Assembly (NCBI GenBank): GCA_016937015.1 | Contig: JAFGWT010000161.1 | Span: 11,130 to 75,129, forward strand | From: Deltaproteobacteria bacterium | GTDB lineage: Bacteria > Myxococcota_A > Polyangia > JAAYKL01 | Reading direction: 5' to 3' | DNA: 64,000 nucleotides | Shown: positions 2,948 to 62,400 of the stretch, in pieces | How positions within the stretch are numbered: position 1 is the stretch's first letter | Layout: the number at the start of each line of letters is the position of its first letter | Notes under the pieces: model-generated | Seen by the model: only the letters and a program-made list of their open reading frames with translations | Databases searched by the model: none | Told to the model about the DNA's origin: nothing | Translations under genes and position numbers: made by a program

Positions 2948-2982
2948 TTTCGCAGATTAATTTTCGTTTACATGGAACCCAA

Positions 2983-35899: not shown

Positions 35900-36237
35900 A
35901 ATTTTTTACTGTTTGCCCTTAAAAAATTTTCGTTGGCTGACATGTATGTCAGTGTATATGTATCGTTAAGCAATTGTTGTGCGTTGTTTTGCGTTGAATC
36001 ATCCTGCTTCTTTTTTCAGCTAGTGCGCATCAGCGCGTTGGTGCTTTTCCGATACGACCATAATTATAAATAAGAGTGACGGAGATCGATAAAACGCTCT
36101 TGAGTTTCTCTCCGCCCTATAATAATTTATTTCAACTTACATACTAGCGCACCATTACGTTCGAGGGGCGACGAATGTTGCTTTAAATTCCAGTTAGATA
36201 TTTGTCACAACACCGTGTTTTACTATCGTAATTCATC

Positions 36238-36253: not shown

Positions 36254-36397
36254 ATGCGACTATTTTGCAATCCGTGTTTAGGTTTATTTTCAAATATACA
36301 TTCTCTGCTGCTGCAGGCGAATGCGACGAAGCGACTTTGGGCGGCCTTTACTACACTGCTGCTTTCAGCCGTTACTCTGCCATCGGGACTACACGCC
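36254..36397 (+). other. Predicted N-terminal signal peptide of the giant protein
   Basis: MRLFCNPCLGLFSNIHSLLLQANATKRLWAAFTTLLLSAVTLPSGLHA | ESAKV: a basic KR, a 15-residue hydrophobic core and an A-x-A-like site (L-H-A). Confidence 0.6.
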
Positions 36398-42300: not shown

Positions 42301-45300
42301 TGCTGCCATGTTGAACTATGGCGAGTTCTGGGTACGGACGGGTGAGGATTTCAACGTCAATTTTTCCATTAACGACGATGCTGGACTCGCTTCCTGGTCT
42401 ATGTGGATGCTCGATACGCTTGAAAACCGTGTCTCGATGGTTCATGGCGAATCCTTTGATTTGCCACCCTGCCCTGGCCTTTATGTGACTCAAAAAACGA
42501 TCGATGCAACGATGGCGCTGACAAGGAACCAATCGGTGCAGTATGAACTCGTCGCAACAGATATTTCCGGACACGAGACCAGTCGAAAATTTGTCGTACA
42601 CCCATTGGATAATATCGCACCTGAAATTCGTTTTATTGAACCAAAGAGTGATCAGCATGTGGTGTCAGGTATTTTCAGAATGAAAGTGGGCGTTGTTGTC
42701 GCTGACGATCGCATTCTGTCTGCCAATGACATTAAGATTTATGCCAACGGTGCAGAGCTGTCCATTGGTCAGTACGACGAAGTGGCTATGTTCACCGAAC
42801 ACAACAACAATGAACCGGTACTGGATGTCACCGTTGATCAGGCGTTTCTCGATATTTTTGACAGCATGGAGCGCAAATATTCCACCCTGGTGGCGGACGA
42901 CTTTGGAACTTTCGATGCGCCCAACTCTAAACGGTATGCCATATCTGTTGAAATCCCACCTACCTTGACTGCCCGGACGGCCCAGCTGGATTTGATGGCG
43001 ACGATTCAGGATTCAGATGGTGTTTTCAGCAGTCACCAGCGCACATTGAACATTGAACCCGATGAAATCAATCCTTCGGTAAATGTGAAGAGCATGGATG
43101 ATGGTTTCCATGCGGTTGAAGGGGCTTCCTTTGACGTTGAATTCAGTGGAATGGATAATGTGAAAGTTGATCGCATGGCAATGTCCGTGGCGTACAAGGT
43201 TGTAACCCCTGATGGGATGCAGCGTCTTTCTTCTTATGGTGATCCGGTATGGTCAGTACAGGGGATTTCGAATATTGATTATGAACCCGTCAGCACACTA
43301 AATATAGATACCCCCTGGTATACGCGAAACATTCCGGTAAAACGAATTTACGAAATACTCGAACTGATTGGCAATGTGCCTGTTGATGACGATCTGCTGT
43401 TTTACGTAATGGTCAAATTTGATGCGACTGACAGCAGCGGAAATACGTATCAAAGAGTGGTTGCGTATCCGATAAAAATCGATGAACGCCCGTTAGTCGA
43501 TATTGTGGCTCCAATGCCTGGTGCAACAGTGGTTGAAGGCAATCGACTGCCTGTGAATGTTCATGCATTTGATGATGTCAAAGTGGAGAACGTACGCTTT
43601 CGTGCAACGATTGGCGCGTCAGAGACTGAAATATTCAACGAACTCTTGTATCAGTCTCCATACCAGGTGGCCATCTACAATGTACCGGCGTTTGATCCGG
43701 CTTCCTACGACAATAATTTGCTGACAATCCATGTTGAAGCCGTTGACTCATATGGTGTGGCGTATGGAGATTTTGATGCACATCGCGCTGAAGAAACGAT
43801 AACCGTTGAGATTATAGAAGACCAGCCCCCAACAGTCGCCATTGGGACGCCGATGACTGGAGATGAGATTTCTGAAGGTGAGTACCTCCTCATCCAGGTG
43901 AATGCGATAGATGATATTGGTGTGGACCAGGTGACGGTAAATGTGTCTGGGCTCATCAACGGTGATCGGACACTGGTTGATGCCACTTATCCCTATGAGT
44001 ATCTCATTAAAGTGCCATATGGGCAGGCGGGCCGGGATTTCAATGTTGATGCGACCGTGAAAGAAATCAGGTATCAGTCTGATGCGCGGACGAGTCAAAG
44101 TGCCAACACCGTGACGGTCCATGTGTTGAAAGATGCGGAATCCCCGGCGATTGTTGTGCAGGAACCCTCTGAAACTGGGGCAACTGTCTACGAAAAGGGA
44201 TTTTTACAGTATGCAGCGCTCGTTACAGACAATGTTGAGGTGAGCTCGGTTCGTATAAATCTGTATGCTGATGATAACCTGGACGGTGTTTTTGATGCGG
44301 ATGAGGTTGTCAACACCACACTTAAAACAACGCCGCCCTTCAAAGGAACGTTTATTACCAAACCATTTGAAAGTTATCTGGCTGGCGGTATGACACCGCC
44401 GGATCAGATGAACCTCAGAGTTGAATGGATAGCATTGGATGGCGCGGGAAATGAAAGCGCAGCGTTCAGAAATGTTGCGTTGATTCGTAACGCGCCACCT
44501 GAAGTTGTTCAGCTGCAAATACTGGATGAACGCGGCTACAATATGGGTAACGGGCTAACCGAAATCACTGAAGGAAGAGGTATTGTTGTCAGTGTAATCG
44601 CGCAGGATCGCGAAGCAGGTGTGGATTCTGCTCGGCTGTATACAGCCTATGGTACGGAATTTTCAGATGAATCGTATCAGAAGTTTGGTCAGGACGATGC
44701 GGTCCCGTTTCAGTTTCATGTAAATATTCCCACGGGACGCGTTGGTGAAAAATTCTCATTTAGGGCGGATGCAATCGACCTTGACGGATATACATCTGAT
44801 CTCTCATTCACGCGGGAAATTGAGATTGTCGCGGACCTGCCTCCGAATGCGAAAATTGTCAAACCCGCCAATAATCACTCGGTACTGATTGAAGGCGAGG
44901 ATATTGAAGTTTATGTTGAGGCGACAGACGACCTGGGCATTGATGGCATCGATCGCGTCGTTTTCTATGTCAATGATATGCCGGTTTATACGGCCTATTC
45001 GCCATACTCGAACTTCGCCGGATCGTTTGCTCAGGATCATATTTATCGTGCGATTATCAGCCCACCGGCAGGAACAGATGGGTTTGCGGTTTATGCAGAG
45101 GCATTTGATATTCTGGGACATTTTACCAGGACCCAAACGGTGATTATTGGTTCGGTGGCAGACACGGTGAAGCCTAAGCTTTTAATTCAATCACCAGTCG
45201 ACGGTGAAATTCTTACCCAGAATGAACCCCTGACAATTGCAGCGTCCATTGAAGACATTGGTGACGCCGAAGAACGGCACGTATTTGTGAAATTCGTTCG

Positions 45301-48300
45301 GGAGTATCAATACAGTGATGCGATCGGTCCTGTCGATATTGACACTGACGTGACACAAATGCCGCAAAACGGTCAATGGATTGAGATTTCAAGCACAGAT
45401 GAAATAGAGATCTTTAATGTCGCCGAAAAGAGCGACCCCGAAAATTATTTCTATTGGTATGAACATCAGTTCCTTGATGTGGCGGGCACTAAAATTCTCG
45501 ACCGTGATTTTCTGCGCAATGAGCGAGTACGGATGGACGTTACTGTGGTTACGCCAAATCATGTTGTGAAAAAAACAACAGTTCACGAAATTGGTCTGCC
45601 GGTAAGCAAACGCACATTCATGAGCTATTCAGAAGGCAGCAGGTCTGGAAAAGGCCTCTATTACACCACCATCGATCAATTCAAATCCATGGAACGCAGG
45701 GGGGCAGTAATTGCCGCATGGTCTGACAGTAATCCGTTGCTGTGGGAGCCTGACTTAAACAATCAGAATGCGCCGGCGCCAGGATGTACCGGTCTGTTTA
45801 TTTCTGACAGTACCCTTGAAAATGTGGTGGATGACAATGGTGACACTTACGTATATTCAGATTTAGTTACCGGCGCGTCGTACGTATTTGCGGGCAATAT
45901 TTCCGAGATTCATGCTGATGCCAATTTTATCGCTGCTGCAAAATCCGGATCACCGGAGGGTGATTGGGCACGCAGCGCCAATTGCAATGGCATTATCGAT
46001 AAGATTGAACAGAATGACCTGTCCGGCGATGTGGACCTCGAACATCGTGCAGGTGAGTTGCTATTATTTTCGGTAAAAAATGATGAAGGCACTCTGGGCG
46101 TCCCATACCAGCTGGTTGGTCGAATTGATATGCCTTATCCAACCGTTCATGGTATTGCCCGTAAAGATAATCTTGCATTGGTGGCCAACGGAGCGGGTGG
46201 TGTCCAGGTGATTGATATTTCCAGTATTTATTCTCCGTATCACGTTGGGTATATTAAACCCAACGGGTATGCAAGAGATGTAAAAGTGGCCGGTTCATTT
46301 GCGTTTATTGCCGCATCCCATGAAGGACTGGTTGTTGCGGATCTGGCTGACCCAACCATGCCGATGGTCTCCAGCCTGGATACAACTGGTGTGGCAAACC
46401 GCATCTTCATTGATGGTAAAACCGCGTACGTAACCGATATGTCCGGCGATGGCTTTGTTTCCCGTATCAATATTGTCGATATTTCGGACCCATTCGCTCC
46501 GAATTTTGAAAACAGCATTTCACTGACGCCGGCGCGAAATGATCTGGTTGAAAATGGCGTTTACGATGTTTATGTGTCTGGCGGTAAGGCGTATGCAACG
46601 GTTCATTACAAGGATCAGTCAGATCAGCCGGCCCAATCTGTTTTGGAAGTGGTTGATCTTTCGAAATTGGATGACCGTACTCTTGATGCCACTGTTCCTG
46701 CTGTTATTCACCGAGACGCCGATTGGGATGATTACGGTGCCCGAACGGTGACGATTGCCGAAGGTGGCGTGTCTGTCGCCGCAGCCAAACAGGGGATTGT
46801 GCGAATTGATTTACCCACCCTCACAGTACTATCGAATCAACCAGCTGCATTTGAGCAGGATGTGCCCACTGGCGGCATGGCAATTGCGGTGGAACTGTCT
46901 GCCGTTGTGTCGGCGTCGACGGACCTGGGTGAGTTCTTTACAGTGCATGAACTGGATGCAGCAATGGGGCCCAATGTTACAGCGGCACTGTTTGATATTG
47001 GTTTCATGAAAGTTGATGGCGATTCAAACCGGCGCATTGTGCAGCTGGCACTGAAAGACGGCCAGCAGCTTACCTCAAATCAAAAATACGTCGTTAGCGT
47101 ACATTCCGGCCTGGCACCGGAAGTTGGACTTCCACTTCAGGATACAGTTCAGTTTGAGTTCTATACCAGTGCAGCGGGTGATGCGTCCGGGCCCAGTATT
47201 GCGGGTATTATTCCTCAGCAGGGACCTGTTTCAGGTGGAACCATCGTGATGGTCTATGGTACCGATTTTGGAGATTCACCTGAGTTGTATATCGGTGGGC
47301 AGCATCTTGTGGTGGATGAAGTGGTGGCGGCACCTGACCCCGACTCACCTAACTACGGCGTGACGCTCGAGTCCTCTGACAGGATATATGCACGAACCGT
47401 TCCCAACTATGCGGGACCGGCGGCGGTTGAAGTGGTTCATGAAAACGGCTTATGGGATGAAGTGATCGGCGGATTCACATACGTTGATGATTTGTTGATT
47501 TCGTTTATCACTCCAGCTGTCGTTCGAGTTGAACAGCAGGGTGAAGACACTCCTGTGCAGGTCGTGGGATATGGCTTCCACGACGATATACAGATTCGCG
47601 CATGGCAAAGCGGACATCCCGAAACAGCGGTTACCAGCGAGGTGGATGGGGATCGCATTCGGCTCTACAGTTCAGAAAAGCTTACGTGGCGCATTCCTGA
47701 TTTTGACGGCGCGTATCGTGGCTTCGTGGATGTTGAAGTCTCGGATGAAACAGGACGCAAGTATCTTCTTCCCAATGCACTGTTTTATGGTCGATTGAAT
47801 GTGAGTACAGCAGTTGATTTGGCAACCGAGTATGTAACCAAAGTAGATGAAGATGCTCCGGAACAGCCTGTCACTGATACAACAAAACTGCCGTATGGAG
47901 AATTGGTGGATATTGCATCGGATTCCGGTCTAGGTCTGGTCTACGCTTTGGGACATGGGGCTGGAAAAGTCGATCGTTCTCTGCTGCCTTCGGAATCCGC
48001 GTTGCGGCAAACAGCGCCACCCAGTTGGATAGCGCTGTTATATTATGAACGCGACAATCTGGAAGCTGCGGCGCCACTGACGGGGTTGGGATATTACAAT
48101 CTGCGTCCGGATTTAAAATCCAGAGCGCTTACACTGCATGAACAGAATCTGTACGTGAGTGCGAAAGGCTATGAATTTAAATACTTCGATACACCGTATG
48201 AGAGCAGAACATGGTTGCTCACTTATGACCGGGAGGACAGACGCCCCGGTGAATTCTCTGCCGAATCTAAAGACAGGGAACCGCTCAATTACCTGCCGTT

Positions 48301-50632
48301 GTCACTGGATTCAGCGCCCGTTTCCATGGTGGGAGTGGGCAATCTGCTGTTTGCCGGTTCGCCAGAGGGGATTGCAGTGATCAGTCTGGTTGACCCGGAT
48401 AAGCCATCGGTGATCCGCTACATACGAGAGGCGTATATAAAAGGTGTTCCTGTTTCCCTGAAAGTGGCTCAGCTGCAGTTGATCAATAATTATTTGCATG
48501 TTCGTACCAGCACGGGATATCGATTTGTTCTAGATATATCAAGACCGTCGTTGCCTCAGGTCGGCTATCATCGAACTGCTGTGCAACACAGTGCGGTGCT
48601 GGGGGCGAGTGAACGGATTTCATCTTCATTTAATGCCGGACAATTCAGTGTATTTGATGCATCGAACCCCGCCAGTATCACACTGCAGTCGCAATACGAT
48701 TCCATGTCGTTTACATTGGATGCCCCGGCAACAAGTGCGTTTGCATTGAGTACCCTTGCGGGCACCAGTGCGGTGATTGACCCCAAAAAGCAGGGGCTGA
48801 CCGTCGAGCAGCAAGTAGCCTATGCGCTGGCAGGGAGCGACAACGTTGACCCTGAGTACTATCTGTCCTACCTGTCGTTATTCGACTCATCCGGTGTGGA
48901 TCACGTCGAGTTGATGGACGCTGTTGCCCTGCCTCGCAATGTCCGAAAAGCGATCCTTTCCGACGATGGGGTTATTGTGGGTATGTCATTCAAGCAGGTA
49001 CAACTTGTGGATACAATGATGCGTGACCTGATATCGTCATCTCCTGGCAATGGGGAAAAGCGAGTTCCGCTTGATAGCATCGTTAAACTCAAATTCAGTG
49101 CCGCTTTTAATGCAGATGAACTTACTGATGTGCTGCCTTACCTGTCGCTGAGGCGGGATGATGGGACTACGGACGGTGAGCTCATCGCAATTGATCTGTC
49201 AATTAGTGCCGACAGTTTAGACACGCTATTGCTGACACCGGACGCGTCACTGACGCCTGGCGAGAACTATTTTGTCGCGTTAAGGGGAACACCTGGAAGT
49301 CGGCGAACATTGGGTCTGTTTGACTATCGCATTGAGTTTCAGACTGGTGTGGACAGTCTGCCAGCGCCGAAAATTATCAGTGTTTCTCCAGCTTCGGTTT
49401 CGACAAACGGACAGCAGGTGGAAGTTGTTGTCGAACATGCCATCGTCAGCGAAGAACCGGTATCGCCTCGTTTTGAAGTGAGCGGTCAGGTTGCGCCCAT
49501 CATTTCTTTATCGCCACTTTCCAGCGAAACGACATCTTTTGTTATTGACGCGCCTCCCAGTGTTGCAGGACCCGCAAGTCTGAAAGTGGTCAATCAGAAT
49601 GACGGCACAGATATGCTTATCGGCGCTCTTCAGTATATCGAATCACTGGTGGTTGAATCCGTTTCACCCAATCGTGGCCCGCAGTCCGGTGGAAATCTGG
49701 TTACCATTAGAGGCAAAGGATTCCGACCCGGGCTGGCTAAGGTGCGCGTACAGGTGGGTACGGTCTGGCTGGATGATGATCAAATAACGGTTGTTGATCC
49801 GGAAACAATTGAAATCGAAATGCCCCAGGGACCTTTAGGTATCGTGGATGTCAAGGTGGCACTCGATACCGGGGAAAGTCTGACACTGGTCGATGCATAC
49901 GAGTTTCTGCAACAGGCGTCGGTATATTTCGATACAAAACTGACGGGTCATGTTTACGACATGGTTATAGATCCAACAGGTAAATGGCTCGTCGCGGCTG
50001 CAGGTGGCGGCGTGAGTATTTTTGATATTGCAGCCGACGCCGAAAATCATTTGGTCCATCAATTCGCATTGCCTGGCGGATACACTGCGCTTGGAGTGGA
50101 CACTTATTTCGAAAGAGGCGTAGACCGCATATTGGTGACTGGTACCCGCGCGAGCGAGGAGAACGATTCCAAACTGTTTGTAGTGAATTTTGATCCACTG
50201 GATATGACAGACTCAACTGTATTGAGTCAGGTACAACTGGATGCAAGCCTGGCGCGCGGAATTGATGCCACAAACAGCCGGGCGATGATCGCCGCAGGAA
50301 ACAAAGGGCTTGGGATTGTGGATATTTTCCACGCAACCAAAGCCTATTTTAACGAATATTTCGTTCTGCCCGACAACCACGAGGCGTTGGATGTAGAAGT
50401 CATCCCGACCACTGCGGAAGAGCCGGAAAGATATGCTGTTGCGTCGGGAAATTTCAGTGTGGCGACGAATTCTTTGGCAAATGAAGATATTGTGACCACA
50501 GGTGCGTTTTACCTTGTCGAGCATAGTACGCAAAACAGTTTTGCCGTGCTGGACAGCTTACCTGTTCCTGCAAGCCGAGTTGTTGTTTCGGGCGACTATG
50601 CATATCTTGCCGCCGGCACCGGGGGACTGGTG
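36254..50632 (+). CDS. Giant secreted/cell-surface repeat protein, part A (4,792 codons; complete ORF missing from the supplied track)
   Basis: In a manual codon-by-codon read of frame +2, ATG 36254 runs to TGA 50630-50632 with no internal stop; the previous in-frame stop is TAA 36071. Signal peptide: KRLWAAFTTLLLSAVTLPSGLHA/ES. Big_2-like segment: VRYVSSHPDLVRVTSSGVVYPL. About 20 Ig-like modules, e.g. ISYPVDGANFVAGMPIELRASAVDDVGVKHVDFYVDS around 38700. LVIVD repeats: GGVQVIDIS around 46200 and RINIVDISDP around 46465. IPT/TIG: GPVSGGTIVMVYGTDFG around 47225 and SPNRGPQSGGNLVTIRGKGF around 49665. Confidence 0.9.
37697..45330 (+). repeat. Array of about 20 degenerate Ig-like modules (roughly 105-115 aa each) within the giant ORF
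   Basis: A recurrent pattern: P-x-[VI]-x-[IV]-x-x-P start, then a DD/DN-x-[GK]-[VI]-x-x-[VI]-x-[FLV] core. Examples: AEADDDVGIKEVQFLVNG (~37765), ASAVDDVGVKHVDFYVDS (~38750), FDNVGVTKTELKG (~39075), HAFDDVKVENVRFRA (~43565), NAIDDIGVDQVTVNV (~43900), EATDDLGIDGIDRVVFYVND (~44915). A non-canonical insert lies at about 41.0-41.9 kb. Confidence 0.7.
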
Positions 50633-53600
50633 ATTGTTGATATCTCTGACCCCTCCAATATGGAAATTGTTGCGAGGGTGAATGAACTCGGAACAGTATA
50701 CGATGTCGCTATAAATGGCGGAATTGCCTATATCGCACTCGGATCAGGGGGGGTTGTTGCTTTGGATATCAGTGACCCGGCGAATCCCGTTGTTTCTCAC
50801 AGCCTTGGTACCACCGGTCAGCGCGCGGAGGCGGTTCTGTCGCTGGATTACGCAGTGGTGGATGCGGGCGTTGGTGATAAAGGCGGTCTGTATTTCTCGG
50901 TTACACCCGATGTCATGTTAAATGTGTATCGTGTTGATCCGCAAAACGGCATACTTGATCAGGATGCAACTGGCGCATTGTCGATGCGGGTTCGGTTTAA
51001 CAAAGCAATAGATCTATACGAACCGAACAATGATAAATTCGAATTGCTCACAGCGGATGGGATGCAACTGCCAACTTCCCTGGTAATTGAGGGCAATGAT
51101 GCGATTGTTAGACTTCTGTCCAGAGATGGGATCGAAGTTGGCGACGAACTGGTACTTTTGGTTAAAAAGGGCGTAGCGAGCGTCAAGCCGGTTTCTGATA
51201 CTGAAGTGATGGTCCTGTATGAACTAAGTCAGCCACGTCAATTTGAGCTGATTTTCAGAGGGGAAAAACTGGACGAAGTTGCTGTGGATTCAGTTGTACC
51301 GCGGCGAGTACCTGTAAATTACGCCGATGACATTACCATTTCGGCGTTCGGTGTCCCTGCTGATATCAATCGGGTTCGCGCGTTTGTGGGCGGTCAGGAA
51401 ATTACAATTACTGAGATCCAGTCAAACGCGAAAGATGAGCGAACCGCTATCATCTTTGCCCATGTACCGAGACTTTCCCATGCAGGGCAGTACGATGTGT
51501 CTGTTTTGGTGGAAAAGGATGGCCTCTGGCAGTCCGGCGTTTTACGCGGCGGTCTTGCAGTGGATGCACCTATCGAATTTGGCTACCTGACGCCAGGCTG
51601 GGGGCCCATAAACGGGGGCACCGTTGTCACCATCTGGGGTCGTGGTTTTGAGCCAGGCAATACAGTCATGGACGGGATAGAAGTGATGATTGGCGATGTC
51701 CCCGTGCAGAGCGTCAAAGTGCAGTCCACCTGGCGTATGGATATTGTCACTCCGGGGGGACATATCGGCCGAAATCAGGTTATTGGAGAAGACCGATATG
51801 GGAATATCACCGGGTTATATGATGATGACGGTTTTGGTTATGGACTCAAGGAATTGTCCAACGCCAGTACAGTGTTTTCGCCTACAGAGATTATTGTCGA
51901 TAATCTTACCGGCACCGCATTGACCAACGGTGGATTTTTCCATGATGTTTGGGGCAATAGAGATTATTACAGGTTTGATGTTTTTGGCACACCGGGCAAA
52001 TCCGATGATTTTTATGATCCGATTCGCGCAGCAACATTCGATATTCAGGATGCATATCATCCAATTCTTGTTGGCAGTGCAACTACCTTGCCCAGCGGAA
52101 ATGGATGGCAGGACCAACTGCTGCAGATGTTGACCATTACAGTTCTTCAGCGAAAAGTGGCGGCGGAAGAGCCACTAACCGCAGAAGAATCTTTACTTTA
52201 TGGTCAGTTGTCAGGGCATCAGTTCCCATCCGGTGTCGATTCGATTGGAATATTTGCAAAAGAAGAGTTCCAGGAAGGTATACCGCGTAAACGGTTGTAT
52301 GTGGCCAACGGCTTTGGTGGTGTGGCCGCGCTGAATATGGATGATCAGAATGGTCTGCAACTGGTGTCGGTGGCTGATCACGCGAAATTGATTACGGATG
52401 TGCAAAAGCAGGGACAGGTTGTTTACGCATCAGCGTCTGATGACGACGGCTCCTGCGAACTTCCGCAAGGAGAATGTGAATCCTGTGCTTTCAGGGAAAT
52501 GTCTGGCGCCGCGCCGGTTCAACGGTTTAATTTTTCTGTGGAAAGCGACCCCGTTCATACGGGTGAAGTATTTGACAGCCAGGGCGCCGCAGTTGCTGGC
52601 GCCAACGTTGTACTCGTTGAGGATGGCGTATTGTACACCGGCGGACAACGGCGGCTGAAGTTATTCAAAATTGATGGCGAAGAATGCAACACCATCACCG
52701 AATCCACCTGGGGACTGCCGTTGTCATTTGCTGACGACGAAGTGGACAATAATGTTTTGTCCGCCATCGATCTTGGCGACAACACGCGCGGTCAGCAGTA
52801 TCAACTCACAGGTAATGTCAGGGATGTACTCATATACGGCGACTATATAGTTGCAGCAGTGGGTAAATATGGTGTGGATATCGTTCATCGTCAGTATCCG
52901 GAACAGCGAACGCGTTTTGCGTTGAATTCGACTCTTCAGTCCAACCCCGGGAGCGCGACCCACTTGAAGATGTTTGGTAACCTGCTGTTTGTGTCTGCGG
53001 ATACTGGCGGCGTTATAGTGCTGGATTTATCGACGCCCCTCAACCCTTATGTTGTTTCGGCAGGTAATGATGAATCAGTGCAATCTGTGGATGCTTATAA
53101 GGGGCGTCTGGTTGGCATATCGCCGAACCGAGGCATGACCACCTTCGAATTGCCCGGCGCCATTGTTATGAAAACATCTGTCCCCGAGGGTCGACGAATA
53201 TCATCTGATGATATGTATGAAGTGACGTTCAACGAATTTGTTACGGTTGAGTCTGTGACTGCGCCCAATGCGGTATCGGTGGTTGAATCCTATACCGGAT
53301 TGCCGGTTGCCGTGGACGTGGTCGCGCTGGATGGGGATTTTGAAGCGGCACAGACGTTCGGTTTGGACTTCAACCGAATAGCGGGCGAATCATACGAGAT
53401 TCGGGTTTCTGATGTTCAAAATATACGCAGCCAAATTCAATGGGCGCCGTTTGTCGGCCATGTGAAAGCTGCTGAAGAAGGGGCATTGCAACCGACCATT
53501 CATTCTGTGGAAAACGGTGTGTTTTCCATTGATGATGAAAGCGATGCGATTATTGTGCATGGCGGGAATTTCCGGGACAGCGATGCGCTGACTGTTCAAA

Positions 53601-56600
53601 TCGGTAATGACACGCTGCCGTACGTGTTCCTAGACAGCAGTACGCTTGAAATTGATTCTAAGGATGTTTTGGCATTGGTGAACGGTGCCGGTGAATACAA
53701 CCTGAAGGTCAATGATGGCGACCTCTTTGCCTTCTCTGCAGGCGCAATTTTAATTGGTGCACGTACTTCGGAGAGCCATTTTGAATTGTCCATGGACTCC
53801 GGTCTGGTGGAAGGGGGGCCGATTGTTACTATTCGGGCCGACAGGCAGGCGATCCTGCCCGGAACCAGGGTGCGAATGCGATCCGTCGCAAATCGTTGTG
53901 AGAATTGGCAGCCGGGGGATGAGCAGCAAAGCTGTGTTATCGAGAGTGTTGAAGTGGCGCCCGGCCAGATGATTCCAGATCTCAAAGATGACGTTGTTGA
54001 CCTGCGCACATTCCAATTTATGGTTCCCGGGGTGATAACGCCGGAACGATACAATGTATATCTGGTGATAAATGGCGAGGAAGTTTTGGTCGATGATTTC
54101 TCTTATACCATAGGCGAAGGCCGTCGAATCGATCTGCCGAACTATCCTCCAACGGTCATGGGCGGAGCAGTCTTCAGCGATGACAGGTTGTTTGTGGGAG
54201 TAAAAGATGGTCAAACCGGCAACACCACGAACCGCCAGCTGATTCAGTATGGTTTCGAAATATACGATGTATCTATTTGGGAGCGACCTGTTCGCCTGGC
54301 TCAAATGGCAACGACATCGCCCGTATATGGCGTTGAAGTTGCGGGTCAACTGGCCTATCTTGCCAACGGCAGCGATGGTCTCAATGTTATTGACATACAG
54401 AATTCGCAGAAACCACAAAGTCTATGGCACATGCCGGTGCCAGGAAGTGTTGCCACTGATGTTTCGTTTCTGGCGCCCAATATTCTGGCGATGTCGGTGA
54501 TAGACGGTGACGGTGGGGGATACATTCGTTTCTTTGATGTGAATGATCCTGAGCTGGACCCACCTGTGGGCAACGGGTATGGCACTATTTCGTTTTCTGG
54601 AGGCGACCTCTTTGGGGAGCCAGTGGATATTGAATGGCACGAAAACACGTTGTTTGTATTGCTTAACGATGAAGGCGAATTGCGTCTTGTTCGATTGAGT
54701 GGATTTAACACAGCCAATGGGGTGAGCTGGAAATCTGAACTGATCGAAAGGGGACATATCGCTTCCGGCGCTGATGCTACGGACTGCTCCATGAATGTGC
54801 AGTTTGGTCAGGTCACCGTGACCAACGGTGCGGATTATCTGGTGCTCCAACAGAATGCATCCGATAATTATGACACTGTGTATTGGGACGGTGTGGGTAC
54901 GGGCGCGCATGAATTGATTTCTGATGGGGGCTCACTCTTTATCTCATATGATGAGGGATTGATTCATATGCCGACGCCGGATTTGGTTGTGTCTGGTGTA
55001 AGCGTTCCCGAAGACGCCGAGTTGATGATGGACGAGTCTCTGATAATTCAGTTCAACCATCTGATAGACACTTCAGAAGCAACGATCAAGTCGGGGCTGT
55101 TGCTTCGAGATACTTTGGGAAATGACATATCTTCCCTGTTCGACATCACAGCCATCAATACACTCGCCGGCGCGTTTATTGAGATTACGCCTAAGGAAGG
55201 TGCCACCTACACTGGAGAGATCTTCGTCGATGTCACATCGGGGATCTATGATATTCTCGGCAATCCACTGAAGTACACGATCCAAAGACGTGTCACACTG
55301 GCCAATGGTACTCGGCCCCGCATCATGCGTGTTTACAGGCAGGTAGTCGATGGCGCTCAGAATAATTTCTTCCATGGTGAAAACGGTGAGGTTACGGTTG
55401 TTGACGGACTGGGGCTGGGCAACGATACAAGTGCACTTCGGATTTGGCTTGGCGACGACCACAATGATGATTTTGAGATTCCTGCAGAAAACATCATTAG
55501 TTTGAGAGATGATGAACTTGTTTTTACATTGCCGGATATAAATATCAGTCAATCCATTGCAGCACTGTCGCTGACTGTTTCAAATAACGGCATTGCCAGT
55601 CAGCTGATCGGTGCAGTGATTGTGCAGCCCAGGGTGGTCGTCAGTGATGTTTATCCTTCGTCGGGACCACCTCAGGGTGGGGGTAATGTGGATATTTACG
55701 GGGCAGGGTTTAATCACAGCATCAATGTATACTTCGATGGCGCCCTGTCAGGTGATTTGAAGGTCAGAAGCAGTAATCACATACAGGTTCGCGTACCTGC
55801 CGGTCAGTTTGGCTATGCGGATGTGGCGGTGAGCAGTAAACTGTTTGCCGATGAGCAAAGTGTGCTTGAGGAAGCATACTTCTATACCAACCAGGAACTG
55901 GGGGCCGTCGACCTGTCTCCCGAAGGATATCGGGCGAGTCCGGTTTCGAAGATGGTAGCAAAGGATCAGATTCTGTACGCCGTCACCGGGGGACAATATA
56001 ATGCCATATATACAGACGGACACAGCCATATGTTTACCGGCACCACAGGACAGTTGGTATTGTCTGATATTTCTGATCCGGTGCACCCGGTGCTTGTCTA
56101 CGATGAAATCGCGGATGTGGAATGGCCGTATCATCTAAATGATACATTTCCGCCAATGGGCTTCACTGATGTGGCTCTGGAAGATCAGAATCTTTTTATT
56201 ACAGGAGGTAACCGATTCCTTCATTTGGATGTCACCCTTGCTGCGGATCCATTGCTTGTTCACGGAGAAGACCTTTATGACAGTACAGGGGCAGCAGATG
56301 TCGCGTGGTCACTAAAGGTTCGTGACAACATCATTTATGTAGCCTGTCAAAGTGGTATCCGAGTATTTCGGCGAACGGACGATAATCGGATCGCGCAGAT
56401 CGATTTTATTTCCGCTTCTGAGTTGGGTGGTTCTCCCAGACAGATGTTCCTTGATGGCGCACTGCTTTGGGTGGCGATTCCAGGGTCGAAAGAAATTGTG
56501 GCAGTGGATTTGGCAGAAGGAGTTTTCGAGGTTGTCGACGAGGTATGGATCACAGATATGAACGGCATAGATACCGTGCCGAGTCATATGCTCGTTCGGG

Positions 56601-59450
56601 ACGATTTGATGCTGGTATCCACTGGCCTGAGTGGCAAAGTGCTGGCCTTTGATGTCGGAACGCCGTTTGATGGGGAGGTCGTGTCGCAGATTACACTGAC
56701 CCAGCTAAACGGGTACAGTGAAATTTTTGCCGGAGAACTCACGATTCAGGCGCAGACGTTGTACGTTGCATCCGGGCAAGGGGATTTGCAGCTGTATGAT
56801 ATTGGGGACTGGCTAAACAATGAGTTTGCGAAAAAGCCGGCATTGAAAAATTACTTTGCGCCACGTGGCGCCGTGTCATCCATTGCACTGGGAAGGGGAA
56901 CAATTTACGCTGGCACCGCGCATCTGCTGCGAAAGGGTGATAACGCAATCGTTGAAAACCCAATCGACAGTAATCTCGAAGCTGGTGTCATGGCCCTCTC
57001 AGGAGGGATTAACACGTTTGATTATAATCAGCTGGCAGTTGTGGGGCAGGTACCAAATCCGAGAGCGTCACATCCGGCGCTGAGTCCGGTGGAAATACAG
57101 TTTAATCGCATTCTGGATTCGGCTCTGCTTTCAGATTTCGCAGATGAGTGGCTTATGGTGACGTATCTGGGCACTCCAGTTCCCGGTTATATTTCCAGTC
57201 AGGTAAATGCAACTGGATCCAGACTGATTTTCAGACCCACCCAGCCGTTCATCAACAATGCACAGTATCTTGTTACCGTATCGCAGGATGTGGCGGATAT
57301 TCATGGGGAGACGCTGACAACAGATTATGTGTTCAGATTTGTTGCCAGCGCGAATGCGAGGCCTGCCATCGAATCGTTGAGTCCAGCGGAAGGCAGCTGG
57401 CACGGGGGGAACGAACTGATTATTCGCGGTTCCAATTTCGGTACAGACACGACGGTCAAAATTGGCGGGATAGCGGTACCTGATTCTGACATTCAGTTCC
57501 CTGATACCGATGAACTGCGTGTCATTGTCCCGGCTCTAACGCAATCGCCCGAATCGAATATTGAAGTTGGTGTGACAGTAGCAAATGGCGATTTGGAAGA
57601 TGTACGTACCAATGCCTATACATACGTGGCAGATATTACTATCGATGAGATTGGCAGCTACAATGATGAGAATCAGCAGTTCAATGGCAACGATCATTTG
57701 TATTTCTATAATCAGCGGGAACAGGTTGCCATTCGCGGCGCCGGTTACTGCAGCGAGACCGTTGTTAAGATAAATGGCAAGCCGGTTCAACAGGCCCGAT
57801 TGGTCGACGAGCGAACGATTACGTTCATTATTCCCGACCAAACCATTGGCAGTCTTTCAGTTGAAGTGGCCAATGGCAACAATGGTCCCTGGGTTACCAA
57901 TACCGATTTGGTTGTGCAGTTCGCGCCAGATCAACGACTGGCAAACACACCGGGGGTGACCTTTGGTCGCTATGGCGATTTGCTGGCAACTGCAGTTGGT
58001 CGTATCGTTTCTGTTTCAACAACACAGGACTCCGAAATGCCGCTGGTTTTATCGTCCATAAACGTGCCAACGGACAATAGTGGCGACACAGTGGCAGCTT
58101 TGGCGCTCAACCATGATTATCTCGCCGTTTTGTTGAGTCAATCCAGAACGCTGCTGATATATTCCCTTGAAAACATCTATTCGCCGACCCTTGAAAACAT
58201 CATTCCCAATCACGGCAACGTTCAACATCGTCGATTACAGATCATTGACAATCAGTTTGTTTCATTTGATGGCACAGATGTCCATATTGGAAATCTCATG
58301 GGCGCCGATTGGGATACCGTTATCGTTGATACCGCAGAAATTGGGGCAGTTGTTGATATTGCGACAGATGATAAATATCTGTATGTACTCGGCGAATACA
58401 TGGTGGATATTAGAGATATTCAGAACTGGAACCTTTCTGCGTTGAACGCACCGGTTTCTCTGGAGCTGATTCAGCCGCTGAGCATCAGGGTTTCTCCCCA
58501 GCGAATGCTGGTGCGCGCCAACACAGGTATTGAGTTATTTGCCACCGGTACATTGGAGTCAAGTGGCGAGATCATTTCACTTGGAAGTAAAGCGTATTCT
58601 GAAGTAACAGATGCAGCCTTTTCCGGTGACATCCTCGCTCTCGCGTTGCGGGTTGATGGCGCACCGGGATTGGTACTCTATGACGTGGATATGCCCATTG
58701 TCTCCGAACAACTGGCGCTCCATCAGTTGGCGTCTGTTAACCGGGAATTGTATTTTGGATGGAATCATACCATAAACGTTGCCGGTATGCGGTTTGAAGG
58801 TGACCTGCTTGAATTCACAGGCGGGAATCTCGGATATTTTAACGTTCGCATTCCTTTTGCAAATGTTACAGAAAGTTTGCCACCCCGGTATATCGCGCAC
58901 CCGACTGCATCGATTGGATTGCGGATTTCCGGAGATCCCGAGGCGTGGGAAAATGTCCAACTGGGCGTGACCGATCAAAGTGGTGACACCTTTTCCGGCA
59001 GCACGGATTTAGCAGGGAAATTCCTGGCGTTTGATGTTACCGGTGATGAATATATTGTTGATACACGATATGACCTTTCACTTTATAATAACCCTGCAAA
59101 AACGGTGGACGGCGCTGATTTAAATATTGATCTACCCTGGACGCTGATGATGAAAACATTTGCCGATAGCCCGGTACGTATTCATCATGTTTCACCCTCG
59201 CGTATCCGTACGGAAAAATTGACGACCATTGGCGTCTCGGGCGCTAATCTTGACACGGTTACGAGTGTGTCGCTTAACGCCATTGAAATTACGAGCTGGC
59301 AAAGTAGCGATGATGGCACGTTGCTTTCGTTCGATATACTTTTATCGGAGCCTGGCATTTATTCGCTCAGACTGGAAAGCGATGATGATGTCACTCAATT
59401 GCCGGCAGCGCTCGCAGTGGACTCATATTTGTCGCTTAGCGATATTTATA
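45900..59450 (+). repeat. Seven protein-level super-repeats (about 1.85-2.2 kb each): LVIVD-type propeller blades, then a Big_5/SbsA-like Ig domain, then two IPT/TIG domains
   Basis: IPT/TIG anchors recur at ~47225 (GPVSGGTIVMVYGTDFG), ~49665 (GPQSGGNLVTIRGKGF), ~51600 (GPINGGTVVTIWGRGF), ~53800 (GLVEGGPIVTIRA), ~55660 (GPPQGGGNVDIYGAGF), ~57385 (EGSWHGGNELIIRGSNFG) and ~59190 (SPSRIRTEKLTTIGVSGANL). LVIVD-like strands occur between them: GIAVISLVDPDKP ~48370, GGVVALDISDPANP ~50750, GGVIVLDLSTPLNP ~53005, DGLNVIDIQNSQKP ~54375, QLVLSDISDPVHP ~56050. Nucleotide identity between units is low. Confidence 0.65.
50578..50701 (+). other. Frame discontinuity inside the giant gene: 41 codons of an LVIVD repeat encoded in frame +1, flanked by frame +2
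   Basis: Frame +2 reads ...FAVLDSLPVPASR then VLFRATMHILPPAPGDW-TGA(50630) LLISLTPPIWKLLRG-TGA(50678) ATG(50681) NSEQYT DVAINGGIAYIALGSGGVVALDISDP... Frame +1 over 50578-50700 reads SVVSGDYAYLAAGTGGLVIVDISDPSNMEIVARVNELGTVY, which joins both flanks as a canonical repeat. This implies one missing base near 50579-50584 and one extra base at about 50701. Confidence 0.85.
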
Positions 59451-62400
59451 CGGACAATACGGCAGGAGCGTCTCTGCTGTCCAATCGTGGTGGTGATCTG
59501 GTTCATGCGGATGGCACTGGATTGGGGGATTCCGAATTTTCGTTGCATCTGGTGGCTGCCACTGGTGGATTTGTACCCAATGACACCAACAGAGTACCGT
59601 CGTTTGTATTTCTAAATGACGGTGAAGGTGGTTTGGAATTTGAGTCCGCGGCATGCGTTCCAAATACCGACTATTATGTGGCGATGGTCAAACCTGTTAC
59701 TGATGAGTTGATATACAGCAACGGTGTGCTGACATGTGTGGACGACACAGGTCCTCGTTTGCTGGGCGCAGTGGGCCTGACATATGCAACGCCCCTCGCT
59801 TTGACTTTTGACGAAGATATTCAGGCCGAGGGTGCGATGGTGACAGCAACTGCGTTGGATTACAGCGGGACGGGTGAGACAGATGTTTCCGCGATTTTCG
59901 AACTGCAGGTTGTGAACCATGTATTGACATTGCAATTAAAACCGGGAGAGACCCTGAGTCACAATACCCGCTATGATGTTGCGATTACTGGCATTGGAGA
60001 CGTATCGTCAACTGCAAACATGTACATGGGAAGCGGTGAACCAGGAGCATATCTATATAATTACAGAACCGCTGATACCCTGGCGCCGGTTAACCTGGAA
60101 ATAATGGACGTCGCGACTGGGCGAACATCAAGTGAAATTGATGCACTGGTGCGTGAAAAATCGTATCGTTTTGCCCCCAAAGGGACAGACAATATTTCTG
60201 CCGGTATAAGTTATACTGTTCGCATCTCCTACGATGGTGGTCTGTCATTTGCGAATACTCCGTTGTCTGGTGGCACATTTGTTGTTAAGGCTGAGTCCGC
60301 CGATACGGCCATTGTTGTACAGCTGACGGCCTCCGATAGTTCAGGTAATCACGCAATTCGCAGCTTCGATTTTTCCATTGCTGAGCCGGAACTCTATATT
60401 TCAAATTTGACAACCGAGCCTGGCGAAGTGGAAGAGGCGTCCCGTGCGGACATTATTTTCCATTACTATGGGGCGGATGTGGATTTGGTGGCCGGTGGTC
60501 ACATGGTGATAGATGGGGTCCCATATGTTGTTTCGATGACCGAAGTGGCAAATGGTCTCTTTGAAGCACGACTGAACTATCGCAATCCACGTTTGATGGA
60601 TATTGCACCTGCGCAGGAAATTAACGTAACGCTGGTAATTGAATATGGTGACGGTAAAAACATCACGGCCAACGATAGCTATGATTTGGTGGCAGATGCA
60701 ACCCCACCAACAATTCGTATTGTTGCACCGGCCGATGATGCGGCGATTCCTCTGGATAGAGAAGTAGATGTGGCGATTCAGTCATTTGACCAATATGGCG
60801 TCGATGATGTCAGTGTCGCCATGAACGGAGGCCCATTCGCATCCCTTGCGGATCCCACGGTGTTCTCCTTTACGCCGACAACGCTTGATGATGTAGTGAT
60901 TCAGGCTCGGGCAACGGATTCCAGTGGTAACGAAGCGCTGTCGTCTCAGGTGGTGTTCCATCCGTACGACGCGGCAACGGGGGCACCCCGGGTGAGAATT
61001 CTTTCGCCTGAGAACGGCGACGTTTTGCGCGAACGGCAAACAATTGAATTGTCCGTTGAACTTGATAATGTAACGGATGCAACGCTGCATATTGACCTTG
61101 GCGCCGATGAGGCCAATCCGGCCAATCCAATCCCTGTTGCGATAACCCGCACTGTAGCCGAACCGACTCGGTTCCAGCTGACGGTCCAGATGCCGTCAAT
61201 AGATGGGACAATTGTGGCCTTGCTTCGGTTGGTGGACGACGCAACGGGAGTGAGTTCGAAAGTTTCTGTGCAGTTGTTGAACGACGATGTTGTTGCGGAA
61301 GAGATGCCGCTTGTTGTGTTGCCATCCGATACTGTGCTGACGGGAACTGAATTGCTGGTTTCTGCCACCAGACCGTCAAATATGACAGATTATAGTTCGG
61401 CATCAGTGGTTGAAGTATCTGGCGCATCTGACGATACAGAAGCAGTTGCACTACAGCCGGACAGTGTGGAAAACCGCATTTCAGTGGCGACAAATGATTC
61501 GCCCGTTACCGTCACTGCGACTTTGCAGGATGTGTCCGGAAATCAAAATACCACTGTACGCGAAGTGACCAAACTGACGTACCTTGATGATCTGATTAAT
61601 GACAGCATTTCGGTAAGTGAGATCTCAGTGGATGAGAATATTGCGGATATGGTGTTTGTGCCGGGAATCGGTGCGGACAGCGGCGCATTGGTGTACGCCG
61701 TCAATTCGAATAGCGGTGGATACCGAATTCAGTCTGGCTCAGATGTTGTCTATCAAAATGCGTTAGGCAGAGTGTCACGTCTGTTCTTTACAGGCGCTGC
61801 CATCGTATTTGAGGAGACAGATGGCGACGAGACGCTGCATCCTGAAATGGATGATCTTGGATTCTCAAGACGTCTTGTTTTCCTCCCGCTGGTTGATGGC
61901 AATTTCAGTGATGCCGTATTGCAACCTCTCTTGGGGGATATTGTCGGTGGTAGCGGAAATGTTATTTTCACTCGTCACGGTAATATTATTGACGGCGTTG
62001 CATTGGACGGGATGAGCAGTGTGCCATTGGTGGGACAATATGTGGCCGATACTGTCAAGTCGATTAGCGTGGATGGTGATCGCGTGTTTGTGCTGGCGGA
62101 AAATGAGGCCGGTGAGCATTCCATTTACGGTATCGGCATTGATAACACTACGTATCCTGCATTGAAACTGCTGTTTATGACAGGGGTGAGTACCGCAGAT
62201 GGCGTGCATGTGAATGGCGATTCCGTGATGACCTGGAACGGGTATGCACTGCATCTGTATCAGCTTGAGTCAGATGGGAATGGTGACGTTTCCGGAGCGC
62301 TGGTTGACCTGGGCGAAAATGTTATTCACGGAGACGCGCTGAATGTACTTTCAGACGGCGATCTGACTTGGTTCTATCTTGATAGCGATGTTCGAGAAAC

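Follow-up and report, generated by a model that had tools for sequence, protein, structure and literature searches.

A giant bacterial protein with seven serial propeller, Ig-like and IPT/TIG units in its central block

A giant open reading frame (ORF) in a 64,000-nt window of a Deltaproteobacteria bacterium contig encodes a central block of seven consecutive units in one frame (nt 46001-59743; the window is the whole stretch of DNA analysed, and all features given below lie on its plus strand). Each unit consists, in this order, of a beta-propeller, an Ig-like domain of ~105 aa, and two IPT/TIG domains, which fall into two distinct classes, a and b. The units are 594-757 aa long (roughly 650), with a mean of about 1.96 kb, in agreement with the period near 2 kb proposed in a first-pass annotation. 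The block is a series of seven non-identical head-and-leg modules, each with a propeller of about seven blades; unit 7 is verified in part only and is the weak copy among the seven. The proposal as a whole, namely seven-module anatomy, ancient duplication, and a function in adhesion or matrix, is held with moderate confidence.

The frame of the giant protein is open from 36104 and continues past the window end at 64000. The likely start is the ATG at 36254, which gives a product of at least 9,249 aa (36254..64000), and no other long open frame is present in the region. An independent assembly tiling the region agreed with zero differences and even depth. Three metatranscriptome contigs were placed on the gene, which suggests expression, although contaminating DNA among them is possible. 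A Sec-type signal peptide of 48 aa (36254..36397; ending ...LHA, followed by ES) was read directly from the sequence. Its layout is the same in three metagenome orthologues: a positive n-region, a hydrophobic core, and an AXA-like site, followed by a conserved V-x-IDVRSDG. On the whole protein, Pfam returned extracellular-type domains only (Big_7, DUF4625, LVIVD, Big_5, and TIG). The gene is adjoined in the window by an EPS locus with envelope-glycan synthesis genes. The neighbours in one orthologous locus (L084) are LPS-core GT9 genes, also for envelope glycans; gene-level conservation of the neighbourhood was not found between the window and L084. The signal peptide, the extracellular-type domains, and the envelope-glycan neighbours were counted in favour of export and an extracellular role. 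As judged from sequence, the protein is likely Sec-exported and probably extracellular.

Pfam was run on the whole protein and on the 28 individual domain pieces with curated cut-offs. Profiles built from the alignments of 79 orthologous loci were compared by hhalign, which joined the slots of each kind to one another. The order of LVIVD propeller, Big_5-like Ig domain, and two IPT/TIG domains was recovered in the Pfam search, in which several slots were below the cut-off or without match, and also by hhalign with its control, the AlphaFold model of unit 3, and Foldseek. The median hhalign probability was 95 between propellers, 91 between TIGa domains, 87 between TIGb domains, and 53 between Ig slots. 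Propeller profiles compared with Ig and TIG profiles, as a negative control, scored about 0 (maximum 2.4).

The LVIVD model exceeded its cut-off of 20.2 bits in the propellers of unit 1 (aa 3300-3585; 46001..46858; 42.5 bits) and unit 3 (aa 4604-4940; 49913..50923; 81 bits). The unit 1 propeller was linked by hhalign to those of units 2-5 at 96-98%. The propellers of units 2, 4, 5, and 6 gave sub-threshold LVIVD matches (13-18 bits): unit 2 (aa 3901-4308; 47804..49027; 17.8 bits; hhalign 93-98% to units 1 and 3-6), unit 4, the longest (aa 5248-5692; 51845..53179; 17.6 bits; 94-96% to units 1-3 and 5), unit 5 (aa 6005-6296; 54116..54991; 13.4 bits; 93-97% to units 1-4 and 6), and unit 6 (aa 6599-6977; 55898..57034; LVIVD 15.6 and PQQ_2 19.8 bits, both below cut-off; 95-96% to units 2, 3, 5, and 7). 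No LVIVD match was found in the unit 7 piece of the window. Canonical LVIVD blades, as detected by a blade HMM, numbered 3, 0, 2, 1, 1, 1, and 0 in units 1-7; the 'several' LVIVD strands per unit described in the first-pass annotation were thus an overstatement.

Big_5 was above its cut-off of 23.6 bits in the Ig slots of unit 2 (aa 4309-4418; 49028..49357; 33.9 bits) and unit 6 (aa 6978-7084; 57035..57355; 38.6 bits over the full model length). Weak, sub-cut-off matches were obtained for unit 1 (aa 3586-3698; 46859..47197; 13.2 bits; hhalign 98% to the unit 6 slot and 96% to the unit 2 slot) and unit 5 (aa 6297-6402; 54992..55309; 13.9 bits; 98% to unit 6). Big_5 was not found in the window pieces of units 3, 4, and 7. 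The slots of unit 3 (aa 4941-5057; 50924..51274) and unit 4 (aa 5693-5794; 53180..53485) were linked by hhalign to unit 2 (94%) and unit 6 (96% over 98 columns), respectively, and contain Big_5 in 10 of 46 and 13 of 48 orthologues. Seven pairs of Ig slots reached at least 90, and all Ig slots were chain-linked. Three Big_5-like peptides quoted beforehand lie in place, at aa 4311 (nt 49034), aa 6298 (nt 54995), and aa 6983 (nt 57050).

Among the 14 TIG slots, seven were above the Pfam cut-off, four were sub-threshold, and three were without match; the seven IPT/TIG positions listed in the first-pass annotation all coincide with TIG slots in units 1-7. TIGa was recognised in unit 1 (aa 3699-3797; 47198..47494; 33.9 bits; hhalign 99% to TIGa of units 2 and 6), unit 4 (aa 5795-5886; 53486..53761; 23.7 bits), and unit 6 (aa 7085-7176; 57356..57631; 44.3 bits), and below the cut-off in unit 2 (aa 4419-4513; 49358..49642; 18.5 bits; 99% to unit 1 TIGa), unit 3 (aa 5058-5154; 51275..51565; 13.6 bits; 97% to unit 5 TIGa), and unit 5 (aa 6403-6508; 55310..55627; 13.5 bits; 98% to unit 6 TIGa). 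TIGb was recognised in units 2 (aa 4514-4603; 49643..49912; 43.6 bits), 3 (aa 5155-5247; 51566..51844; 35.9 bits), 5 (aa 6509-6598; 55628..55897; 42.2 bits), and 6 (aa 7177-7273; 57632..57922; 23.9 bits). Unit 1 TIGb (aa 3798-3900; 47495..47803) had no Pfam match and was linked at 96% to TIGb of units 2 and 5. Unit 4 TIGb (aa 5887-6004; 53762..54115), also without Pfam match, is the weakest TIG slot; its best link was just 76%, to unit 2 TIGb. For 13 of the 14 TIG profiles, the best partner was a slot of the same class from a different unit. PDB profile matches of the unit 3 and unit 6 TIG slots were on IPT/TIG domains only: those of plexin and MET for unit 3 TIGb, and those of plexin, CGTase, NFAT, and COE for unit 6 TIGa.

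The seven copies proposed earlier were confirmed, the last of them in part. In unit 7, the propeller-like segment (aa 7274-7590; 57923..58873) had no Pfam match in the window, and LVIVD was present in 1 of 52 orthologous units. The PDB search gave WD40 propellers at an E of about 0.4 only. A putative propeller fold is suggested solely by the profile similarity to the unit 6 propeller (96% over 213 columns). The middle domain (aa 7591-7691; 58874..59176) has the position and size of the Big_5 slot and matched the unit 6 slot at 84%, over 55 columns only. Pfam gave no match to it in the window copy or in the orthologues (0/46), nor did the PDB profile search; it is at most a putative Big_5 domain. 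TIGa (aa 7692-7776; 59177..59431; Pfam TIG 17.8 bits, sub-cut-off) was linked to unit 3 TIGa at 93%, with TIG in 18 of 52 orthologous units. In the AlphaFold model of unit 7, a pLDDT of 65-80 was reached in TIGa only, which formed a beta-sandwich; for the unit as a whole the model failed. The TIGb-like domain (aa 7777-7880; 59432..59743), without Pfam match, was linked to TIGb of unit 2 (94%) and unit 3 (93.5%). This second TIG-like domain had been cut off in the first-pass annotation, which ended the block at 59450; the true end is 59743.

AlphaFold modelled unit 3 (pLDDT 78.8) as a propeller followed by three beta-sandwiches. In the propeller (residues 14-310; pLDDT mostly 70-92), about seven sheets of four strands each were seen, with ~27 strands in all. 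The Ig slot (pLDDT about 80-92) and TIGa were confident beta-sandwiches. The pTM was 0.48, and the geometry between domains is not reliable. The top Foldseek matches were plexin A1 (7e-14), MET, plexin C1, and plexin A4; integrin alphaX was also listed. The flexibility of the modelled multi-domain chain kept TM-scores low (0.2-0.3); the likeness to plexin, MET, and integrin is therefore one of domain order and folds, not of homology. Each unit would follow the head-on-Ig-legs design of the integrin alpha, plexin and MET ectodomains, with seven such modules concatenated here in one chain.

Paralogous units share 16-22% identity, whereas the value between a segment and its orthologue is 27-56%. 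The 79 orthologous loci, about 72 of which contain ORFs of >8,000 aa, belong to Gammaproteobacteria, Desulfobacterota, and Myxococcota and range from 38 to 70% in GC content. Culturable carriers include Aquipseudomonas alcaligenes RU36E, Metapseudomonas otitidis DSM 17224, and Colwellia psychrerythraea GAB14E. In 53 of 55 long loci of the three phyla, the 28 segments all kept their linear order. Unit number and unit lengths are fixed among orthologues, and the unit-to-unit spacing is kept across the family (e.g., 573-620 aa and 659-690 aa). No DNA-level repeat was found in the block (two matches of 21-23 nt were chance-sized), nor was a tandem repeat. The earlier view of highly diverged units in an old, maintained architecture is borne out. 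Sequence comparison clearly indicates that the block goes back to an ancient duplication of the complete four-domain unit. Exactly seven units have been kept since then, and each retains a length and an orthologue of its own. The same seven units occur in the same order in dozens of other bacteria, and the protein therefore looks like one of a widespread family of surface or matrix proteins, as yet uncharacterised. No published description of this family was found within the limited literature searched, consistent with the earlier statement that no described function was known.

The periodicity could in principle reflect assembly collapse or expansion, recent tandem amplification, or chance recurrence of beta-strand motifs. 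Beyond the window slots that fall below Pfam cut-offs, nothing speaks for such an artefact, which is refuted by the identical independent assembly with its flat depth, the lack of DNA repeats, the 79 collinear orthologous loci, and the near-zero hhalign controls; we regard it as virtually certain to be wrong. Most likely, the product is a Sec-exported giant adhesion or matrix-organising protein, surface-attached or secreted. Glycans or proteins would be bound by the seven propellers, which would act as non-equivalent heads, and the three-domain Ig legs would space and orient these heads. LVIVD repeats were first described in cell-surface proteins (PMC2447325).

An unlikely alternative is that the units provide length and stiffness only, as the repeat region of RTX or Bap-type fibrillar adhesins does, and project a functional domain located N-terminally, or C-terminally past the window, with propellers that have no ligand of their own. 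A long chain of beta-sandwiches is known from fibrillar adhesins, the units yielded no catalytic or known binding motif, and conservation differs little between the Ig and TIG slots (mean medians 0.37-0.45) and the propellers (0.41). In known adhesins, however, extender repeats are usually almost identical to one another and vary in copy number, whereas the present units are strongly diverged; each is conserved in its own right across three phyla, and their number and lengths are fixed. A propeller would also be a costly and uncommon spacer, and that of unit 1 is the most conserved segment of all (median identity 56% among orthologues). Quite improbable in our view is a structural envelope or cell-cell junction protein, in which the units of one molecule, or of several, would build a defined higher-order structure, such as a ring, a sheath, an S-layer-like lattice, or a tether between cells, with propellers as self-assembly interfaces and not as receptors for foreign ligands. 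The constancy of unit number and unit lengths points to a defined geometry, and plexin ectodomains, the best structural analogues, reportedly form ring-like assemblies of one propeller and IPT domains (the 5l56 work). Social or symbiotic carriers (Myxococcota, Thiodiazotropha, and an Olavius symbiont) fit as well. Against this, self-association of the giant protein is hypothetical, the unreliable inter-domain geometry of the unit 3 model offers no help, and the family is also present in ordinary free-living Pseudomonas, Colwellia, and Psychromonas.

Downstream of the seven units, no propeller or TIG copy was found, nor was any elsewhere in the giant protein beyond aa 3300-7880. A lone Big_5-like domain (aa 7884-7970; 59753..60013; Pfam Big_5 25.7 bits) lies 3' of unit 7 and drew weak matches from the Ig-slot HMMs of units 2 and 6. 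One orthologue is about 13,600 aa long, and TSP3_bac was detected in the tail of one orthologue.

The seven units occupy nt 46001-59743 (aa 3300-7880) of the giant protein. The first-pass annotation had described them as seven copies of an LVIVD propeller, a Big_5-like Ig domain and two IPT/TIG domains. This region was divided into 28 pieces, with a propeller (P), a Big_5-like (B), a first TIG (TIGa) and a second TIG (TIGb) slot in each unit. Pfam was run on each piece with gathering scores of 20.2 bits for LVIVD (PF08309), 23.6 bits for Big_5 (PF13205), and 20.9 bits for IPT/TIG (PF01833). All three domain classes were found, but the window sequence by itself shows the pattern only incompletely. 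PF08309 passed the cut-off in unit 1 (42.5 bits) and unit 3 (81 bits), stayed below it in the propellers of units 2, 4, 5, and 6 (13.4-17.8 bits), and had no match in unit 7; run on the whole protein, it scored 47 and 68 bits in the two halves. In the B slot, which separates the propeller from TIGa, PF13205 passed with 33.9 bits in unit 2 and 38.6 bits in unit 6, was weak in units 1 and 5 (13-14 bits), and gave no window match in units 3, 4, and 7. The Big_5-like peptides that had been quoted near 49040, 54990, and 57050 are present there. PF01833 passed in seven of the 14 TIG slots (TIGa of units 1, 4, and 6; TIGb of units 2, 3, 5, and 6), was sub-threshold in four (TIGa of units 2, 3, 5, and 7), and was absent in three (TIGb of units 1, 4, and 7). 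A blade HMM counted 3, 0, 2, 1, 1, 1, and 0 canonical LVIVD blades in units 1-7, respectively; most propeller blades have therefore diverged. Among the orthologues of the B slots that are silent in the window, Big_5 was found in 10/46 copies for unit 3, 13/48 for unit 4, and 0/46 for unit 7. Orthologous unit 7 copies carried TIG in 18/52 cases and LVIVD in 1/52.

The repeat had also been expected to appear in a self-comparison. Self-BLAST of the giant protein did return matches of 25-36% identity, but over short stretches only. Together with self-seeded HMM iteration on the single protein, it picked up only those TIG and LVIVD copies that are best conserved, and Big_5 was not found a second time. 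Orthologue-based profiles were needed because the paralogous units are too diverged for self-comparison. Hence, each of the 28 segments was aligned with its own orthologues, and all pairs of alignments were compared using hhalign. The median probabilities were 95 for P-P, 91 for TIGa-TIGa, 87 for TIGb-TIGb, 51 for TIGa-TIGb, and 53 for B-B. The built-in control, P against B, TIGa, or TIGb, reached at most 2.4, and B against TIG was always below 90. The claimed periodicity of the slots is thus borne out, and its origin as an artefact is excluded. The propellers of the other units were tied to the unit 3 kind at 87-98%. Seven B-B pairs scored at least 90 (units 3 and 4 at 94-96%), and each B slot was linked through a chain to a slot passing Pfam Big_5. 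The TIG slots were linked at 87% or more, with the sole exception of unit 4 TIGb (76%, to unit 2 TIGb); the other weakest link was that of unit 7 B to unit 6 B (84%, over 55 columns only). The architecture is firm for six of the seven units claimed, but holds only partly for the seventh. For 13 of the 14 TIG profiles, the best partner was the same slot class in another unit, which indicates that the whole four-domain block was duplicated, as opposed to independent domain shuffling. Slot HMMs run outside aa 3300-7880 found no more propeller or TIG and a single Big_5-like domain (aa 7884-7970).

The structure of unit 3 was predicted using AlphaFold2 from a 12-row alignment composed of the window paralogues and five protein-database fragments. 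The model was all-beta with a mean pLDDT of 78.8, and it recovered the expected order of a propeller followed by three beta-sandwiches. Residues 14-310 form approximately 27 strands in about seven four-stranded sheets (~7 blades; pLDDT mostly 70-92), residues 297-334 are a low-confidence linker, and the sandwiches cover residues 338-451, 457-551, and 555-643. The best Foldseek matches in the PDB were the full ectodomains of plexin A1 (7e-14), MET, plexin C1, and plexin A4 (entries 5l56, 7mo7, 6vxk, and 5l5k, with 7e-14 for 5l56). The propellers matched were of the Sema and DDB1 kinds, the latter ranking after these ectodomains, and integrin alphaX (4nen) ranked 35th. The TM-scores were only 0.2-0.3, a low range that a flexible multi-domain chain would be expected to give; the match is one of folds and domain order and does not imply that the propellers are homologous. 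PDB profile searches with the unit 3 and unit 6 orthologue alignments matched IPT/TIG domains only (plexin, MET, CGTase, NFAT, and COE). No PDB profile match was obtained for the propeller, Big_5, or the unit 7 middle domain. The unit 7 model, built from the seven window paralogues only, had a pLDDT of 35, the first TIG excepted. The unit 7 profile matched the Ig/IPT region of SGBP-B in the PDB (4e-5) and WD40 propellers only at E ~0.4.

The same unit was found in other giant proteins. A scan of a genome collection, with the unit 3-unit 4 region and two fragmentary homologues as seeds, found 79 loci that match the query over its full 1,070 aa (29-59% identity). The carriers are Gammaproteobacteria (Pseudomonas, Metapseudomonas, Aquipseudomonas, Ectopseudomonas, Colwellia, Psychromonas, Pseudoalteromonas, Bermanella, Cellvibrio, Thiodiazotropha, Alkalilimnicola, and others), Desulfobacterota, and Myxococcota, and the GC content of the orthologues ranges from 38 to 70%. 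One ORF occupies the entire 24-kb locus in approximately 72 of the 79. Each of the 28 window segments has its best match in most loci, in strictly collinear order in 53 of the 55 long loci. The spacing between units is conserved (573-620 aa from unit 4 to unit 5; 659-690 aa from unit 5 to unit 6), and the seven-unit block has a median span of 4,363 aa in the orthologues versus 4,391 aa in the window. Individual segments are 27-56% identical to their orthologues, with the highest values in unit 1 and the lowest in unit 7, versus 16-22% between paralogous units. Collinearity, spacing, and an orthologous identity above the paralogous one argue that the sevenfold structure arose before the family spread and has stayed fixed ever since, in line with the earlier reading of an old and maintained architecture. 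In a neighbor-joining tree of unit 6, the window sequence stands beside a Polyangia MAG and other Myxococcota, and some gamma- and deltaproteobacterial sequences are interleaved.

Several orthologous ORFs are interrupted. In a 591-kb ENA contig (contig_24023; locus L081), the gene is called as four consecutive ORFs (4,392, 1,157, 1,339, and 6,729 aa; ~13,600 aa in sum), probably owing to frameshift errors of a long-read assembly; the tail of this orthologue carries Big_7, TSP3_bac, and CarboxypepD_reg. Interruptions in loci L018, L064, L070, L073, and L075 reflect either pseudogenisation or sequencing error. That of L018 is a simple frame shift inside the gene, and the site was rejected as an apparent gene start. 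Protein-database searches listed no match longer than ~1,170 aa and yielded only five orthologue fragments (P0001, P0002, and P0121-P0123); the search with unit 7 had no match. In public genomes, fragments of family members carry the name 'IPT/TIG domain-containing protein'. NCBI genomes do contain orthologues longer than 8,000 aa, yet none was among the protein-database matches listed, which suggests that giant proteins are absent from that collection or cannot be reached in it. In protein databases and tools that impose a length limit or split genes the family is invisible, and searches at the protein level would miss it. Generic LVIVD proteins were considered for deepening the alignment and rejected, as they align only to the two canonical unit 3 blades.

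The giant gene lies in a single open frame of 9,299 codons that opens at 36104 and runs past the window end. Behind its first ATG (36254) comes a typical signal peptide, MRLF...KRLWAAFTTLLLSAVTLPSGLHA|ES, whose putative cleavage site was placed from the layout of the sequence. Three metagenomic orthologues share this N-terminal layout of positively charged residues, then a hydrophobic core, and then an AXA-like site. The start codon, the signal peptide, and the shared layout predict a protein of at least 9,249 aa that would be exported through Sec. The motif V-x-IDVRSDG directly follows the signal peptide in the window protein and in the three orthologues, and its conservation suggests that the N-terminal module may be functionally important. 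In an independent assembly from the same metagenome, six contigs tile 44000-63999 with zero differences and a flat depth of ~7-8. The giant gene has no tandem repeats and no direct DNA repeats beyond two chance matches of 21-23 nt. The first-pass annotation had already held that the units are neither an assembly artefact nor a recent amplification, and these data agree. Three short contigs from the metatranscriptome of the same study map to the gene. Run on the whole protein, Pfam matched Big_7, DUF4625, LVIVD, Big_5, and TIG. Seven Big_7 stretches fall in the N-terminal third, and the N-terminal ~3,200 aa (36254-46000) hold these, DUF4625, and weak internal self-similarities. The region after unit 7 (59753-64000) contains a lone Big_5-like domain and Big_7 domains, and no Pfam match was found in the last 800 aa of the protein within the window.

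Upstream of the giant gene lies a Wzx/Wzy-type exopolysaccharide (EPS) locus (1841-24899), whose best NCBIfam matches are Myxococcus-type Eps models. The matches are EpsE, EpsD, and EpsC (1841-4635), a Wzy polymerase (5956-7431, minus strand), EpsY (14400-15062), EpsV (16657-18183), a GH44 EpsB (19855-21657), and an Asn-synthase/XrtA-type amidotransferase (22923-24899, minus strand), all below the equivalog cut-offs. Between this locus and the giant gene are two divergently transcribed, single-module NRPS genes of condensation-adenylation-carrier type, encoding 1,068 aa (26921-30127, minus strand) and 1,074 aa (30335-33559, plus strand). A metagenome scan for neighborhood conservation gave four loci. 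Upstream of the giant gene in one of them (L084) are three GT9 heptosyltransferase genes and a B12 radical SAM gene without similarity to the window neighbors. A conserved link to an EPS operon was rejected, as none of these genes has an equivalent among those in the 36 kb upstream in the window; envelope glycans are only a loose theme of both contexts.

LVIVD repeats were originally described in surface proteins (Adindla et al., 2004; PMC2447325). The giant protein shares the PF08309 propeller and the predicted cell-surface location with this family, typical members of which were the next-best database matches. Those members are 600-1,100 aa long, with many canonical blades, FlgD-Ig, and T9SS sorting domains, whereas here each propeller, with 0-3 canonical blades, sits inside a four-domain unit repeated seven times.

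The order of a seven-bladed propeller, a small linker domain, and IPT/TIG resembles that of plexin, semaphorin, and MET ectodomains (Sema propeller-PSI-IPT/TIG), and the TIG profiles match plexin and MET IPT domains by sequence. Unlike these receptors, the giant protein is bacterial, has an LVIVD-family propeller and a Big_5 Ig linker in place of the cystine-rich PSI, and carries seven propellers per chain instead of one; Sema (PF01403) and PSI (PF01437) had no match in any Pfam scan of the protein or its pieces. We read the likeness as an analogy of architecture, in which IPT/TIG would be the only detectably homologous part. The integrin alpha ectodomain (beta-propeller-thigh-calf-1-calf-2) likewise combines a seven-bladed head with exactly three Ig-like beta-sandwich legs. 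In contrast to integrin alpha, the giant protein has seven heads on a single chain, and lacks FG-GAP repeats, a sequence relationship, and a beta-subunit partner. The unit is a bacterial example of the propeller-plus-Ig-leg design of metazoan adhesion receptors.

The usual explanation for giant bacterial surface proteins is a binding tip carried on a stalk whose repeats are near-identical. In the Gram-negative giant fibrillar adhesins (LapA, SiiE, MpIBP, and Bap-type), the tandem extender repeats are near-identical and variable in number, and secretion is by a type I system with a C-terminal RTX signal. The giant protein resembles them in its very large size, export, predominance of Ig-like domains, and presumed role in adhesion or biofilm. 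It differs in that its repeat is a compound unit of 650 aa, anciently diverged and fixed at seven; near-identical tandem extender repeats are absent from it, as there are no DNA repeats and the units are 16-22% identical. No T1SS genes were found in the 36 kb upstream in the window, and the N-terminal Sec-type signal peptide argues, though not decisively, against membership of the type I-secreted RTX/Bap group.

An extracellular role in adhesion or in a matrix is the reading we favor, because of the signal peptide, the exclusively extracellular-type domains, the fact that LVIVD repeats were first described in surface proteins (PMC2447325), and the contrast with extender repeats. The propellers would then act as non-equivalent binding heads on three-domain Ig legs. 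The main rival is that the seven units serve as a passive spacer, as the stalk does in the usual explanation of such proteins. A compound four-domain repeat that is ancient, fixed at seven, and conserved copy by copy across three phyla points instead to seven distinct functional sites and not to filler. A self-assembling structural role is also possible. A more specific form of the adhesion reading is offered tentatively and may well be wrong. The family would be a phylogenetically wide and hitherto undescribed one of 9,000-14,000-aa proteins with a fixed heptad of non-interchangeable propeller and three-Ig-leg modules, in which each propeller has its own partner. One molecule would thus organise the extracellular matrix or cell-cell contacts with several specificities at once, and the family would have been kept for long and exchanged between Gammaproteobacteria, Desulfobacterota, and Myxococcota. 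If true, the core would in effect be a fusion, within a single chain, of seven ectodomains of integrin or plexin type. Searches of a limited literature collection on LVIVD, giant genes, and TIG-domain proteins found no paper on the family or the composite unit, and two surveys of giant proteins do not mention it; the earlier statement that no function had been described for the unit stands within that literature. Since Pseudomonas-group, Colwellia, and Psychromonas strains are culturable carriers, the role is directly testable.

Some minor observations concern the gene as a whole. The mature N-terminus (36398-36430 in the window; N-termini of loci L082-L085) is kept across distant orthologues, and the N-terminal part from ~aa 1155 onward is also collinear with them. 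The giant gene also overlaps four short ORFs (150-220 aa) on the minus strand at 53596-55552, which are most likely spurious antisense frames. GC skew is always positive (0.05-0.19) over 36000-64000, the whole giant gene, and is weaker in the upstream 36 kb.
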